From positions 1 to 62,245 of the forward strand of contig JAICJC010000004.1 of assembly GCA_025928655.1 (NCBI GenBank): a stretch of DNA of 62,245 nt. Reading direction: 5' to 3'. The position numbers were made by a program, and so were the translations under genes. Below the pieces are notes generated by a model that ran no database searches, had not been told where the DNA came from, and worked only from the letters and a program-made list of their open reading frames with translations. This DNA comes from Thermoleophilia bacterium. Its GTDB lineage: Bacteria; Actinomycetota; Thermoleophilia; Gaiellales; JAICJC01. The stretch's first letter is position 1. Each line of letters starts with the position of its first letter. Positions 18,385 to 21,553 of the stretch are shown piece after piece.

Positions 18385-19743
18385 CTAGTCCTTGAACGGG
18401 TCGACGATGTTCGCGCCCGCCATCAGGACGACGACGGGAAGCAGGCGATGCGCGACCTTGATCGTGCCCGTCGCCTCGTGGGCACGGACGACGTCGTCGA
18501 GCTTGCGGTAGACGAACGGCGACTCGTCGACGTCGCCGCCCCGCACCTCGAGCGGGTAGCCGGTCTGGGCGCGGAACTCGTTCAGGCGCTCCGCCATCAT
18601 CTGGCGCGTGATCAGGCCCTTGCGAGTCCCCTTCCGGTTGCCCTTCGCCTTCGAGCGGCTCATCACCCGGCCGGCGCCGTGCACCGTCGAGCGGAGCGAG
18701 CGCCGGGCGAGCTCGGAGTCGACGCCCTCGACGACGACGGCCCAGTCGCCCATCGAGCCGCCGATGAACCCGGTCTGGCCGGGGAACGCGGGCGTCGCCC
18801 CCTTGCGCACGACGCGCACGAGCTCGTCGCCGTGGGTCTCGGTGAACGAGTAGTTGTGATGGTTGTGGACCGTCTCGAGGGCGGTGGTGCCGAGCAGCGA
18901 GAGCACCTCGGCGATCACGTGCTCGCGCCCGGCGTAGGCGTACTCGCCGGCGAGCTGCATCGCCCGCTCGTAGCGACGGCCGATCTCCGCCCGGGCCTCG
19001 GCGTCCTGCGGCCGCGCGCCCAGCTCCTGCGCCGCGTCCGTCGTCAGCGGGAGCAGCGACGGCGCCGCGTGCATCGACTCGCCGCCGGGCATCCGCGAGA
19101 AGAACGCCCGGTGCGCGGCCAGGTTCAGGAACCCCGTCGCGACGCCGTGCCCGAAGCCCCGGCTGCCGAAGTGGCATGCCGCCCAGACGGACCCGTCGTC
19201 GGGCTCGACCAGCAGGTCGACGTAGTGGTTGCCGCTCCCGACCGTCCCCAGCTGCGCCTCGGCGCGGGCGCGCAGCGACCAGCTGCGCTTCCGGCCCGCG
19301 ACGGTCTGGGTCAGCTCGGGGACCTCGCCCCAGATCGGCGAGTCGAACAGCTCGTGGTCGACGGGCGTCTCGTTCTTGCGGCCGATGCCGAAGCTGATCC
19401 GGGTACCGATCTCGTCCGCCAGCCGGCCCAGGTCGGGACGGATGTCTTCGAGGGAGAGACGCGTGCGCACCGCCATCACCCCGCAGCCGATGTCGTAGCC
19501 GACGCCGCTCGGCGACACCATGTCGCGGTAGGCGGCGACGCCGCCGATAGGCATCGAGTAGCCGACGTGGTTGTCGGCCATGAGCGCCGCGTCGCTGACC
19601 CAGCCGTGGCCCGCCACCGTCCTGATCTGGGAGACGGCCATGACGTCGTAGCTGTAGCCGAACACCCGGATCCGGCCGCCGTCGAACTCACGGTAAGGCT
19701 CGCTCTCGCGAACCGTCGTTGCGTCGTCGGGGAATCGGGTCAT
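18385..19743 (-). CDS. rtcB: RtcB RNA ligase (canonical motifs)
   Basis: ADNHVGYSMPIGG, GYDIGCG, GTVGSGNHY, HFGSRG, HHN, RKGATPA, GGSMG, HGAGR, DESPFVYR. Confidence 0.93.
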   Translation of the reverse strand: MTRFPDDATTVRESEPYREFDGGRIRVFGYSYDVMAVSQIRTVAGHGWVSDAALMADNHVGYSMPIGGVAAYRDMVSPSGVGYDIGCGVMAVRTRLSLEDIRPDLGRLADEIGTRISFGIGRKNETPVDHELFDSPIWGEVPELTQTVAGRKRSWSLRARAEAQLGTVGSGNHYVDLLVEPDDGSVWAACHFGSRGFGHGVATGFLNLAAHRAFFSRMPGGESMHAAPSLLPLTTDAAQELGARPQDAEARAEIGRRYERAMQLAGEYAYAGREHVIAEVLSLLGTTALETVHNHHNYSFTETHGDELVRVVRKGATPAFPGQTGFIGGSMGDWAVVVEGVDSELARRSLRSTVHGAGRVMSRSKAKGNRKGTRKGLITRQMMAERLNEFRAQTGYPLEVRGGDVDESPFVYRKLDDVVRAHEATGTIKVAHRLLPVVVLMAGANIVDPFKD

Positions 19744-19774
19744 GTCGTCATCTCTCTGGGTGTGGATGGAGTGA

Positions 19775-19845
19775 TAGCTCCACGGAGAGTCGAACTCCGG
19801 TTTCCAGGTTGAGAGCCTGGCGGCCTGCCGTTAGCCGATGGAGCC
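19775..19845 (-). tRNA. tRNA-Glu(CTC), no encoded CCA
   Basis: Cloverleaf: acceptor GGCTCCA/TGGAGCT, anticodon arm CCAGG-CTCTCAA-CCTGG, T arm CGGAG-TTCGACT-CTCCG. Confidence 0.88.
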
Positions 19846-19870
19846 GCGAAGGTCGCCCGCGACTCCCGAG

Positions 19871-19942
19871 CGCCCCGTGACGGAAGTCGAACCGTCGTCT
19901 CCTCGCAGACAACGAGGTGTCCTGCCATTGAACGAACGGGGC
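19871..19942 (-). tRNA. tRNA-Asp(GTC)-like, atypical, no encoded CCA
   Basis: Acceptor GCCCCGT/ACGGGGC, D arm GTTC..GGAC, anticodon arm CCTCG-TTGTCTG-CGAGG (T at position 37), T arm GACGG-TTCGACTT-CCGTC (8-nt loop). Confidence 0.78.
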
Positions 19943-19972
19943 TCTGGAGGGCGGGTCGTGCGGCGGGCCACG

Positions 19973-20000
19973 AAAAAGGGCGTCCCGCTGGGCCGCCCTC
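19973..20000 (-). terminator. Attenuator terminator 2
   Basis: GAGGGCGGCCC-AGC-GGGACGCCCTT followed by TTT. Confidence 0.8.
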
Positions 20001-20038
20001 AACTCGAACAGTTCGGTGTCGTCGCCGGTGTCGTTACG

Positions 20039-20197
20039 TCAGCGAGCCCGCGGAGCCGGGTTGAGGGAAGCGTCCGTCGGCAGGCATCGCCGACGGCGTG
20101 GTGTATCGACGGCATGCGGCTGCACGTCGTTACACAACGATTCAGCACCGGCGAGGCGCAGCCTCGCCTGTATGTACTCGGTTTCGATCTGTTTCAC
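20039..20197 (-). CDS. Putative leader peptide uORF2 (52 aa, MKQIETEYIQARLRL...PRRRRC...APRAR)
   Basis: AGGAG RBS 8 nt before GTG; its 3' end carries CCCTCAAC, complementary to the 5' arm of terminator 2. Confidence 0.65.
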   Translation of the reverse strand: MKQIETEYIQARLRLAGAESLCNDVQPHAVDTPRRRRCLPTDASLNPAPRAR

Positions 20198-20211
20198 GTA
20201 CGGTACTCCTG

Positions 20212-20250
20212 AAACGACGAAGGGCGGCCCGGTATTCCCGGGTCGCCCTC
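20212..20250 (-). terminator. Attenuator terminator 1
   Basis: GAGGGCGACCCGG-GAATA-CCGGGCCGCCCTT followed by a weak U tail; stem homologous to terminator 2. Confidence 0.7.
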
Positions 20251-20274
20251 GGCCAGAACCGTATGTTGAGCGGT

Positions 20275-20391
20275 CTAGCTGAGGACGATCCGATCCTTCC
20301 GATCGAGCTGCATCGGGTACGGTGCATGCGTCGACGCGGCCGGTACGAGGCCGGGTTCGGGCATCCACACGGTTGTGATCTGACTGATCAT
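20275..20391 (-). CDS. Putative leaderless leader peptide uORF1 (38 aa, MISQITTVWM...DRKDRIVLS)
   Basis: ATG 7 nt after the -10 box; last 18 nt pair 16/18 with the 5' arm of terminator 1. Confidence 0.65.
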   Translation of the reverse strand: MISQITTVWMPEPGLVPAASTHAPYPMQLDRKDRIVLS

Positions 20392-20398
20392 CGTTACT

Positions 20399-20427
20399 AC
20401 CATAGCGCGTGACGCGGCAAAGTACAA
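20399..20427 (-). promoter_or_regulatory. Sigma70-type promoter TTGTAC-N17-TATGGT
   Basis: -35 at 20427-20422 and -10 at 20404-20399, pointing to uORF1, the tRNAs and rtcB. Confidence 0.7.
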
Positions 20428-20464
20428 CCCGCTTTGGTGAATTCGTAGCGTAAGTGTCCGCAGG

Positions 20465-21553
20465 CTACGCCAGCGACCGCTCGACGAGCCGCTGGAAATG
20501 CTGGATGAGGTGCTCGCTCGCGAGCATGAGGCGGCCCTCCGCCAGGCCGCCGGACGTGGCCGCCCGCTGGATGGACTCGACCAGCGCCTGGTCCTCGTCG
20601 AACACCTGGCCCCCGAACTCGTCCAGGGCGGCGATCTCCTCCTCGGACACCTCGTCGCCGTAAAAGCTGTCGGACACGGCGAGCGTCCGGTCGGGGGCGA
20701 GCGGGATGAAGTAGAAGGCCGACAGGTTGGGGGCACCGGGGAACACGTTGATCGTGAACGTGGGCCAGAGCCAGTGGAAGTGCGCCTCGGCGACGGGACC
20801 GACCGGGTTGTACGGCAGGCCGCCGTTCTCGCTCTCGGCGCCCACCCGCGTGCGCGACACCTGGCTCGAGAACCACTCGTCGGCCGTCAGCGCGTAGGTC
20901 TCCGGGCTGACGTCGATCACCCGCGAGAAGCTCGGATGGGCGGTCGGGCAGTGGTAGCACTCGAGATAGTTCTCGACGACCGCCTTCCAGTTCGCCGCGA
21001 TCTCGCTCTCCGCGTGATCGCGGAACCGCATCCTGCCGAGGTCGACGCCGGCGTCGGCCACGATCTGCGGCAGCCCGCCGAGGTAGCGGGCCAGCGGCTG
21101 GGCGTCGAGGTTCCGGTTGACGAAGACGAACGGGCCCCACGTGTCGACGGCGACGGGCACGAGGCCGAACTCCGCCCGGTCGAACCCCGGCTCGAGCTCG
21201 CTGCGCGGCGCCGAGCGCAGGCAGCCGTCCAGCCCGTACGTCCAGGCGTGGTAGGGGCACTGGAGCGACATCCGCCTCCCCCGGCCCTCGGCCACCTCGG
21301 TGGCGCGGTGCCGGCAGATGTTGACGAAGGCGTTCAGGTTCCCGTCCTCGTCACGGACGACCACGATCGGCACCAGGCCGGCCCGGGTGGTGAAGAACTG
21401 GCCCGGCTCGCTGACCCAGTCGAGCACGCCGGCGTAGAGCCAGCTGTCGGCGAACACCCGCCGCTGCTCGAGCCGGAAGACCCCGGGGTCGCAGAACCAG
21501 TCGAACGGGAGGGTGATTCCCCGGTCGAGCCGGGAACCGAGTTCCGTGGCCAT
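20465..21553 (-). CDS. Rieske non-heme iron oxygenase alpha subunit (choline monooxygenase-like)
   Basis: NICRHR...CPYHAWTY, NWKAVVENYLECYHCPTAH, EDQ. Confidence 0.9.
   Translation of the reverse strand: MATELGSRLDRGITLPFDWFCDPGVFRLEQRRVFADSWLYAGVLDWVSEPGQFFTTRAGLVPIVVVRDEDGNLNAFVNICRHRATEVAEGRGRRMSLQCPYHAWTYGLDGCLRSAPRSELEPGFDRAEFGLVPVAVDTWGPFVFVNRNLDAQPLARYLGGLPQIVADAGVDLGRMRFRDHAESEIAANWKAVVENYLECYHCPTAHPSFSRVIDVSPETYALTADEWFSSQVSRTRVGAESENGGLPYNPVGPVAEAHFHWLWPTFTINVFPGAPNLSAFYFIPLAPDRTLAVSDSFYGDEVSEEEIAALDEFGGQVFDEDQALVESIQRAATSGGLAEGRLMLASEHLIQHFQRLVERSLA

Follow-up and report, generated by a model that had tools for sequence, protein, structure and literature searches.

Putative tandem ribosome-dependent attenuators in the leader of a tRNA-rtcB operon of a Thermoleophilia bacterium

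On the minus strand of a 62,245-nucleotide (nt) contig of a Thermoleophilia bacterium (GenBank JAICJC010000004.1; this whole stretch is hereafter the window), the end of a Rieske-type oxygenase gene at 20465 is followed by a promoter-like site, two successive modules, a tRNA-Asp, a tRNA-Glu and the RNA ligase gene rtcB. Each module contains a short open reading frame (ORF), a hairpin beginning with GAGGGCG and, upstream of it, a CCUC core that could base-pair with the GAGG of this hairpin; the hairpin and the core are common to every related module that we found. The balance of evidence leans towards this region being the 5' leader of an operon composed of a tRNA array, here cut to tRNA-Asp and tRNA-Glu, and rtcB. 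With moderate confidence, based on comparison of related leaders, we propose that the two modules act as tandem ribosome-dependent transcription attenuators in series, with a logic similar to that of whiB7 leaders yet outside the whiB7 family, and control tRNAs and RNA-repair genes. Such switches would probably turn the operon on when ribosomes slow. A preliminary description of this DNA had recognized the two modules and overlooked that tRNAs and an RNA ligase are the genes they would regulate.

In the proposed mechanism, transcription would start at a conserved promoter, at or beside the start codon of the 38-codon ORF of module 1. For the 5' arm of each GAGGGCG hairpin there would be two possible partners: its own 3' arm, in a terminator, or the CCUC arm inside the preceding ORF, in an antiterminator. 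The antiterminator would be the default state, since its partner is transcribed first. A ribosome moving close behind the polymerase and positioned at the stop codon would melt or block the antiterminator, the terminator would form and transcription would stop. Few, slow or stalled ribosomes would leave the antiterminator intact, and the polymerase would continue into the tRNA genes and rtcB. The polymerase would have to get past two modules in succession, as in the AND gate suggested in the preliminary description, which could reduce leakage and sharpen the response. Under translation stress, the cell would obtain spare tRNAs and enzymes of RNA repair. Since the regulated products are non-coding RNAs, the switch would not act on translation initiation, and its output would be transcriptional or at the level of RNA processing.

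Architecture and conservation of the two modules

This proposal starts from what the sequences show directly: the anatomy of the leader and its conservation, an alternative helix that covaries, and two states of nearly equal energy. The promoter-like site (20399-20427, minus strand as for all window features below) consists of TTGTAC at 20427-20422, a 17-nt spacer and TATGGT at 20404-20399, and in the comparison of the window with genome G052 conservation begins at the -35 box. The form TTG[TC][AG][CT]-N17-TAT[GC][GTC]T is present in 9/9 leaders tested and additionally in G024, and similar boxes can be found by eye in G078, G008 and G045. The ORF of module 1, uORF1 (20275-20391), comprises 38 codons plus TAG, with its ATG 7 nt past the -10 box, and we infer from this sequence that its translation would be leaderless. 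In all four leaders compared, uORF1 has exactly 38 codons with the same start position and stop, even at 61-62% nucleotide identity. Its variable columns number 20/18/16 at the three codon positions and a majority of the codon changes are non-synonymous, so that the peptide is not conserved. Its last 13 codons are conserved, and the same stretch constitutes the RNA arm. Indeed, antiterminator 1 (20239-20292) is formed by a 5' arm containing the uORF1 stop codon (CGGATCGTCCTCAGCTAG, 20292-20275) and a 3' arm containing the 5' arm of hairpin T1 (CTGGCCGAGGGCGACCCG, 20256-20239), and the 16 paired positions out of 18 announced by the preliminary description, two of them G-U, are present on the minus strand. 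Hairpin T1 itself (20211-20252, stem 20250-20220) has the arms GAGGGCGACCC (20250-20240) and GGGCCGCCCTT (20230-20220) and the tail CGTCGTTTC, a weak U-tract. Taken in isolation, the antiterminator 1 hairpin has a folding energy of -31.7 kcal/mol in the window and in the related metagenome contig L037 and of -31.6 kcal/mol in genome G001, with T1 at -24.7 kcal/mol; the respective energies in G052 are -25.4 and -21.2 kcal/mol. When a ribosome footprint was masked at the uORF1 stop codon, T1 was formed in 4/4 leaders.

Module 2 follows immediately. As had been pointed out, a ribosome-binding site stands directly after T1: AGGAG (20210-20206) is located 10 nt past the T1 stem and 8 nt ahead of GTG 20197, from which ORF2 extends over 52 codons to TGA at 20041-20039 (AGGAG and ORF2 together, 20039-20210). 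The ORF2 frame is open and indel-free over 46 codons in 3/3 group members, with variable columns at codon positions 12/17/14. In antiterminator 2 (19996-20067), CCCTCAAC (20067-20060) pairs with GTTGAGGG (20003-19996) at 8/8 positions, as was previously noticed, and this helix closes a long irregular hairpin enclosing the ORF2 stop codon. In the window, the antiterminator 2 state has the minimum energy; in L037 and G001 it is 1.2 and 2.0 kcal/mol above the minimum, respectively. Hairpin T2 (19973-20000, stem 20000-19976), with the arms GAGGGCGGCCC (20000-19990) and GGGACGCCCTT (19986-19976), ends in a five-U run at 19977-19973. Its energy is -16.5 kcal/mol in the window versus -23.8 kcal/mol in L037 and G001, the window hairpin being weaker because of one A mismatch.

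The two modules had initially been presented as homologous. Their similarity is limited to the hairpins, the arms of T1 and T2 sharing GAGGGCG-CCC and GGG-CGCCCTT, and the upstream parts score like shuffled sequences (81, 62 and 179 of 200 shuffles equal the observed score). The geometry of the modules differs as well: from the end of the CCUC core to the stop codon there are 3 nt in module 1 versus 18-27 nt in module 2 and in the single-module leaders of G019, G024, G008 and G045. A duplication of the hairpin is plausible, and homology of the entire modules is not supported by these sequences.

The evidence for the alternative helix comes from 13 leaders with 20 modules in total. To compare them, the modules were anchored on the CCUC and GAGG cores, seven flanking positions were considered without gaps and identical modules were collapsed. 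The 20 modules gave 14 distinct flank pairs, all of them largely complementary despite their differing sequence, for instance CAAC/GUUG, AUCUC/GAGAU (GAGGU in G073, with a wobble pair), GUCGCAG/CUGCGAU, AGCUAGG/CCUGGUU and AUCGGAGGA/UCCUUCGAU. Paired flank cells amounted to 81/98, against 57.7 ± 3.9 when partners were permuted among modules (maximum 74, with 0/5000 permutations reaching 81), this control taking no account of sequence relatedness. In an earlier set of 16 modules, 58/70 flank cells were paired versus 42.7 ± 3.1 after permutation. Single flank columns display up to six standard pair types. Covariation across homologues had been suggested as a check of the switch; the flanks do covary and, judging from these alignments, the alternative helix is under selection. 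On the other hand, the duplex formed by the short arms in the window did not differ significantly from duplexes with shuffled upstream sequence (44/200 shuffles equal it for arm 1 and 31/200 for arm 2), and the same test was not significant for most of the modules. The strong support is therefore that provided by the comparative covariation.

Folding of the modules agrees with a two-state arrangement. In nascent RNA lacking the 3' arm of the hairpin, the antiterminator core was paired with the hairpin 5' arm in 16/16 modules. With the ribosome footprint masked at the stop codon, another check put forward in the preliminary description, the hairpin was formed in 15/16. The hairpins have energies of -16 to -25 kcal/mol in 20/20 modules, and their stem is nearly invariant over all 20; they constitute one sequence family in all leaders. 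A clear U run follows T2 of the window, L037 and G001, T1 of G054 and G056, and the hairpin of G045, the other tails being of the UCGUCGUU type. The complete 441-nt leader of the window folds with z = -3.68 relative to 100 shuffles and better than all 100.

The short ORFs are positioned in a regular manner. An ORF of 28-54 codons with a canonical start ends 24-39 nt ahead of the hairpin in 18/20 modules. In 12/13 leaders, the first start codon (ATG or GTG) is situated 7 nt (4 leaders), 9 nt (6) or 10 nt (2) past the -10 box, and in G045 the leader extends ~30 nt past this box and contains GAAGGA. This positioning suggests that the first ORF is leaderless or nearly so. The evenly spread variation of the ORFs is compatible with regulatory reading frames, and a Pfam search with both ORF peptides of the window returned no family. 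Midway through many of the short ORFs in modules of either type (window, L037, G001, G008, G019 and the ORF2 block) there is a recurrent His-Ala motif (GCAUGC or CAYGCC), the only hint that module 1 and module 2 ORFs resemble each other.

The downstream tRNA arrays and their surroundings

The leader of the window precedes tRNA-Asp (GTC; 19870-19942, 47.4 bits), tRNA-Glu (CTC; 19775-19845, 59.3 bits) and, 31 nt past tRNA-Glu, rtcB (18385-19743; Pfam RtcB, E = 3.1e-67). The tRNA-Asp looks atypical, with an anticodon loop UUGUCUG carrying a pyrimidine at position 37. Similarly, the G001 array (L002, 834-904 and 1225-1298) includes a 'Glu' tRNA with the loop CCCUCAA, having C at position 33, and a 74-nt 'Leu(CAG)' without a long variable arm. 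In an Rfam search of 19000-21000 at E <= 10, only the two tRNAs exceeded the gathering score, with no T-box, riboswitch or other family. A strict hairpin pattern matched only the two places of this leader in the 3.69-Mb assembly (82% complete), and the reversed control gave 0 matches.

Related leaders were collected in several ways. A blastn search found the leader in G001 among 41 relatives and, among 65 family genomes, also in G052, which belongs to a different genus. An exact-pattern scan for the C-terminus of uORF1 returned only G001 and G052 from all species genomes and only contig L037 from the metagenome collection. Further leaders were obtained by searching the L037 array in 401 genomes of the order and then the hairpin pattern across the family, which added those of G054, G056, G080, G073, G078, G019, G024 and G008, all upstream of tRNA genes, which in five cases form arrays of 12-20. 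The leader of G045 came from the same searches. Two modules are present in seven leaders (window, L037, G001, G054, G056, G080 and G073) and a single one in six (G052, G019, G024, G008, G045 and G078), the tandem layout being observed in three genus-level groups. The leader of G045 (L096, ~1290-1550) is of the same type, with a promoter, a 44-codon ORF, a CCCUCGACAG arm and a GAGGGCGACUC hairpin followed by six U. It precedes protein-coding DNA, with no tRNA in the 3.5 kb fetched, and the next ORF, of 57 codons, has a strong AAAGGAGG site.

Some candidates were discarded during these searches. The weak blastn matches in L030, L010 and L011 were attributed to chance, being within coding sequence, and the hairpin-pattern match of G068 falls in an apparent coding sequence. 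A looser hairpin pattern was abandoned as a leader marker across the family, as it matched many unrelated and often palindromic hairpins. Palindromic hairpins of the form GAGGGCGG...CCGCCCT match both strands at conserved places in several family genomes (e.g. G042:C3:193697-193727); we regard them as probable bidirectional terminators of the ordinary kind, without relation to the leaders. A blastn search of plasmids and phages with the L037 leader gave no match. Two genomes flagged as unpublished, G367 and G016, support none of the claims made here.

Comparison with the relatives clarifies the origin of the short tRNA segment in the window. L037 shares the upstream gene, the two-module leader and the start of rtcB, and carries between them a structured RNA of ~250 nt and 15 tRNA genes as predicted by ARAGORN. 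In G052, 16 tRNAs are followed by a TROVE (Ro60) gene, and G054 and G056 have 20 tRNAs each; in terms of specificity, the array serves at least 16 amino acids. When the window is aligned with its relatives and the L037 sequence, a deletion junction appears at GCCCTCCAG (19943-19952), adjoining tRNA-Asp; in the relatives, this motif is the start of the ~250-nt structured RNA, which is followed by at least 12 tRNA genes. The window is without ~1.2 kb after GCCCTCCAG and also without the tRNA-Asn and tRNA-Ile present between Asp and Glu (compared with L037 30-1660, minus strand). Since L037 carries 15 tRNAs between the same leader and the same rtcB start, and relatives have arrays of 12-20, the two tRNAs of the window are, in this comparison, the deleted remnant of a 12-20-gene array. 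Long tRNA arrays have been defined, in the part of the source available to us, by at least 20 genes at a density of at least 2 per kb (PMC4758250). With its 2 tRNAs the window falls outside this definition, and its relatives meet or approach it (20, 20, 16 and 15 genes).

The conserved structured RNA between the leader and the first tRNA begins with GCCCUCC(C)AGG and contains an acceptor and T-arm minihelix (GGUUCGAGUCC). It is located at ~1420-1655 of L037 (minus strand) and at ~1546-1780 of L052, and is also found in G001, G052, G056, G080, G073, G019 and G024. Neither the leader nor the structured RNA of L052 and L037 matched any Rfam family at E <= 0.1. Near Ro60/Rsr genes, this RNA is a candidate Y-RNA-like partner.

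Genes of RNA repair and quality control flank the arrays (L036 2163-3974; L058 222-2018; L059 367-2031; L061 2964-4676; L062 2111-4477). RtcB is encoded at the array in the window, L037 and G001, Ro60/Rsr (TROVE and vWA domains) after or inside the array in G052, G054, G056 and G080, and Hen1 upstream in G019. This neighbourhood is compatible with a function in RNA damage or translation stress.

Weighing the explanations

RNA-library contigs lying on the leader were found in four rhizosphere metatranscriptome runs from three studies. They cover 20276-20384, that is uORF1 (0 differences), 20212-20305, 19913-20259, which bridges T2 into tRNA-Asp, and 19726-19970 (0 differences); loose contig ends indicate further variants in which T2 is followed by the structured RNA. 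One RNA-library contig, X15 (depth 6.4), joins 20143 to 20212 and skips the 68 nt (20144-20211) containing the ribosome-binding site and the first codons of ORF2; this junction may be a strain variant. No contig covers 20420-20480 and few cover the 3' end of the upstream gene, a gap that carries no evidential weight.

Several points weigh against tandem ribosome-dependent attenuation. The contigs attest presence in RNA libraries only: DNA carry-over is possible and transcript ends are not readable from them. The permutation control of the covariation is, as mentioned, blind to relatedness, and all sequences belong to uncultured soil Actinomycetota. A simple consensus scan of the region called 0 promoters and 0 terminators, and the U-tracts of T1 and of several related hairpins (CUUCGUCGUUUC) are poor. 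The folds are minimum-energy and not kinetic; in those of short regions, the hairpin is often accompanied by a portion of the antiterminator, and the two states are therefore close in energy. Open frames are weak evidence of translation, because long frames easily arise by chance in high-GC DNA; 3/4 leaders have a second open frame across uORF1, and the lack of codon-level selection in uORF1, in ORF2 and in the close pairs G054/G056 and G080/G073 fits non-coding sequence too. The rule of ORF placement has two exceptions, namely module 2 of G001, with ACG where the start codon is expected and no canonical start, and G078, with no in-frame stop before the hairpin. In G054 and G080 the module 2 ORF has ribosome-binding sites of poor strength or spacing, and G052 is without T2, a ~135-nt block that holds it being missing.

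A real two-helix switch might instead be set by a trans-acting factor, with the frames being incidental; proteins (for instance Rsr or RtcB), tRNAs or their fragments and the structured RNA nearby would be candidates. The ORF peptides are indeed not conserved, two modules are without a proper start or stop codon, and the near-invariant stem of all 20 hairpins could mark a binding site. We regard such a factor as rather improbable in view of the regular placement of the frames: the start codon stands 7-10 nt past the -10 box in 12/13 leaders, the stop codon 24-39 nt before the hairpin in 18/20 modules, and the length of uORF1 is exact in 4/4 leaders; moreover, no Rfam family, T-boxes included, was detected at E <= 10 in the leader of the window. 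It is also conceivable that module 1 is the sole sensor. T2 would then be a constitutive or insulating terminator, or would be slaved to module 1: formation of antiterminator 1 would leave the T1 3' arm (GGGCCGCCCUU) free to capture the T2 5' arm (GAGGGCGGCCC), so that a single stall would open both gates. The two hairpins have almost the same arms, which makes such cross-pairing possible, and the whole-leader fold uses long-range pairs between the 3' region of T1 and the 5' region of T2; the weak or absent start signals of ORF2 in some relatives and the loss of T2 in G052 point in the same direction. However, the flanks of antiterminator 2 covary independently across genera (CAAC/GUUG, AUCUC/GAGAU, GUCGCAG/CUGCGAU), single-module leaders follow the geometry of module 2, and a local hairpin with a 3-nt loop should outpace a 230-nt long-range pair in folding, which makes a single sensor unlikely.

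The hairpins might also not be terminators and could act as signals of pre-tRNA processing or stability, or as gates on the translation of two small proteins, the helices tuning RNA decay or ribosome access. The weak U-tracts of most hairpins, the AGGAG of ORF2 directly after T1 and the contig bridging T2 would fit this scheme, which we find quite unlikely: runs of 5-6 U are present at T2 of the window, T1 of G054 and the G045 hairpin, the presumed small proteins display neither amino-acid conservation nor a Pfam match, and there is nothing to translate downstream of module 2. Finally, chance complementarity of GC-rich sequence beside ordinary terminators would be consistent with short-arm duplexes no better than shuffles in the window and with the many places matched by the looser hairpin pattern in family genomes. 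It is highly improbable in the face of the covariation over 14 distinct flank pairs, a level reached by none of the permutations, and of a promoter-ORF-arm-hairpin-tRNA layout conserved in 13 leaders. Collectively, the comparison favours the two ribosome-dependent attenuators in series.

Relation to known systems

The closest parallel is the whiB7 leader of mycobacteria and other actinobacteria. According to the available part of a recent report, this leader includes a variable short uORF enriched in alanine, an antiterminator and a Rho-independent terminator, with efficient translation leading to termination and impaired translation to read-through (bioRxiv 10.1101/2023.06.02.543512). As far as that part of the report describes it, the present leader is similar in its actinobacterial origin, its short variable ORFs, its antiterminator combined with a putative terminator and its predicted translation logic. 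The earlier designation as a whiB7-type leader is thus appropriate for the logic, which matches the published model, but not for the family: the downstream genes are tRNAs and rtcB, with no whiB7 and no positive feedback by a transcription factor. In addition, uORF1 contains 3 Ala among 38 residues, the first ORF is apparently leaderless and two modules occur in series.

In the attenuators of amino-acid operons (trp, his, leu, pheA), the position of a ribosome on a leader ORF selects between hairpins upstream of an intrinsic terminator. A ribosome would make a comparable choice here, whereas the ORFs are without a run of codons for a single amino acid, the regulated genes are RNAs and no anti-antiterminator (1:2) helix was identified in the leader. 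Since this helix was not identified, an absence of translation should give read-through and not termination.

Leaderless polycysteine short ORFs of mycobacteria have been described, in the available part of the source, as the first element of polycistronic transcripts and as attenuators (bioRxiv 10.1101/834739). The likeness to those ORFs, so far as that part presents them, concerns an apparently leaderless ORF in first position and its proposed attenuating role; cysteine runs are absent here. In tandem riboswitches and T-boxes, a leader carries two terminator-type switches that sense a ligand or a tRNA directly, and the response becomes sharper or takes two inputs. The modules described here differ in that each has an ORF and in that no Rfam riboswitch or T-box was matched. 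If the proposed attenuation is true, they would provide a natural example of two leader-ORF gates in series.

Ro60/Rsr, RtcB and tRNA-like RNAs are also clustered in the enterobacterial rsr-Y RNA-rtcBA operons, which are controlled by RtcR and sigma-54 and for which we know of no uORF attenuator. The occurrence of Rsr beside the arrays in G052, G054, G056 and G080 recalls these operons. A search with the Rfam YrlA model gave one weak sub-threshold match only, inside tRNAs.

The role of long tRNA arrays and the way they are switched on are poorly understood, and the studied case, that of Anabaena, points to translation stress acting via a repressor. In the part of the work available, the tRNA array (trn operon) and rtcB of Anabaena PCC 7120 are induced by translational stress through promoter repeats (PMC8421152), and a repressor of the array, TrcR, is reported in another source, also available in part (PMC10272220). 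Our leader resembles this system, as presented there, by a supernumerary tRNA array tied to rtcB and by a connection with translation stress, whereas the candidate sensor is here cis-acting and would read ribosomes. The terms 'leader', 'attenuat' and 'terminator' occur 0 times in the Anabaena array paper (PMC8421152). More generally, the papers retrieved on tRNA arrays and operons with leader ORFs or attenuation, judged mostly by title, abstract start and term counts and with supplements excluded, did not describe an attenuator before tRNA genes. As far as this literature goes, the present leader would, if our proposal is true, be the first leader-ORF attenuator controlling tRNA genes. A cis-acting, ribosome-read attenuator before arrays of an unrelated phylum would then be independent evidence for their role in translation stress, and its wiring to rtcB, rsr and hen1 would link the arrays with RNA repair.

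A more specific function can be put forward only tentatively, as a possibility we would not bet on. The leader could be a homeostat of the tRNA pool, its codon-diverse ORFs reporting the supply of intact charged tRNAs; depletion or cutting of tRNAs, e.g. by anticodon nucleases or toxins, would cause stalls, open both gates and release the reserve tRNAs together with RtcB/Ro60. If so, decoding failure would be directly linked in cis to tRNA resupply and repair, a connection that would have evolved independently of the repressor control of the cyanobacterial array.

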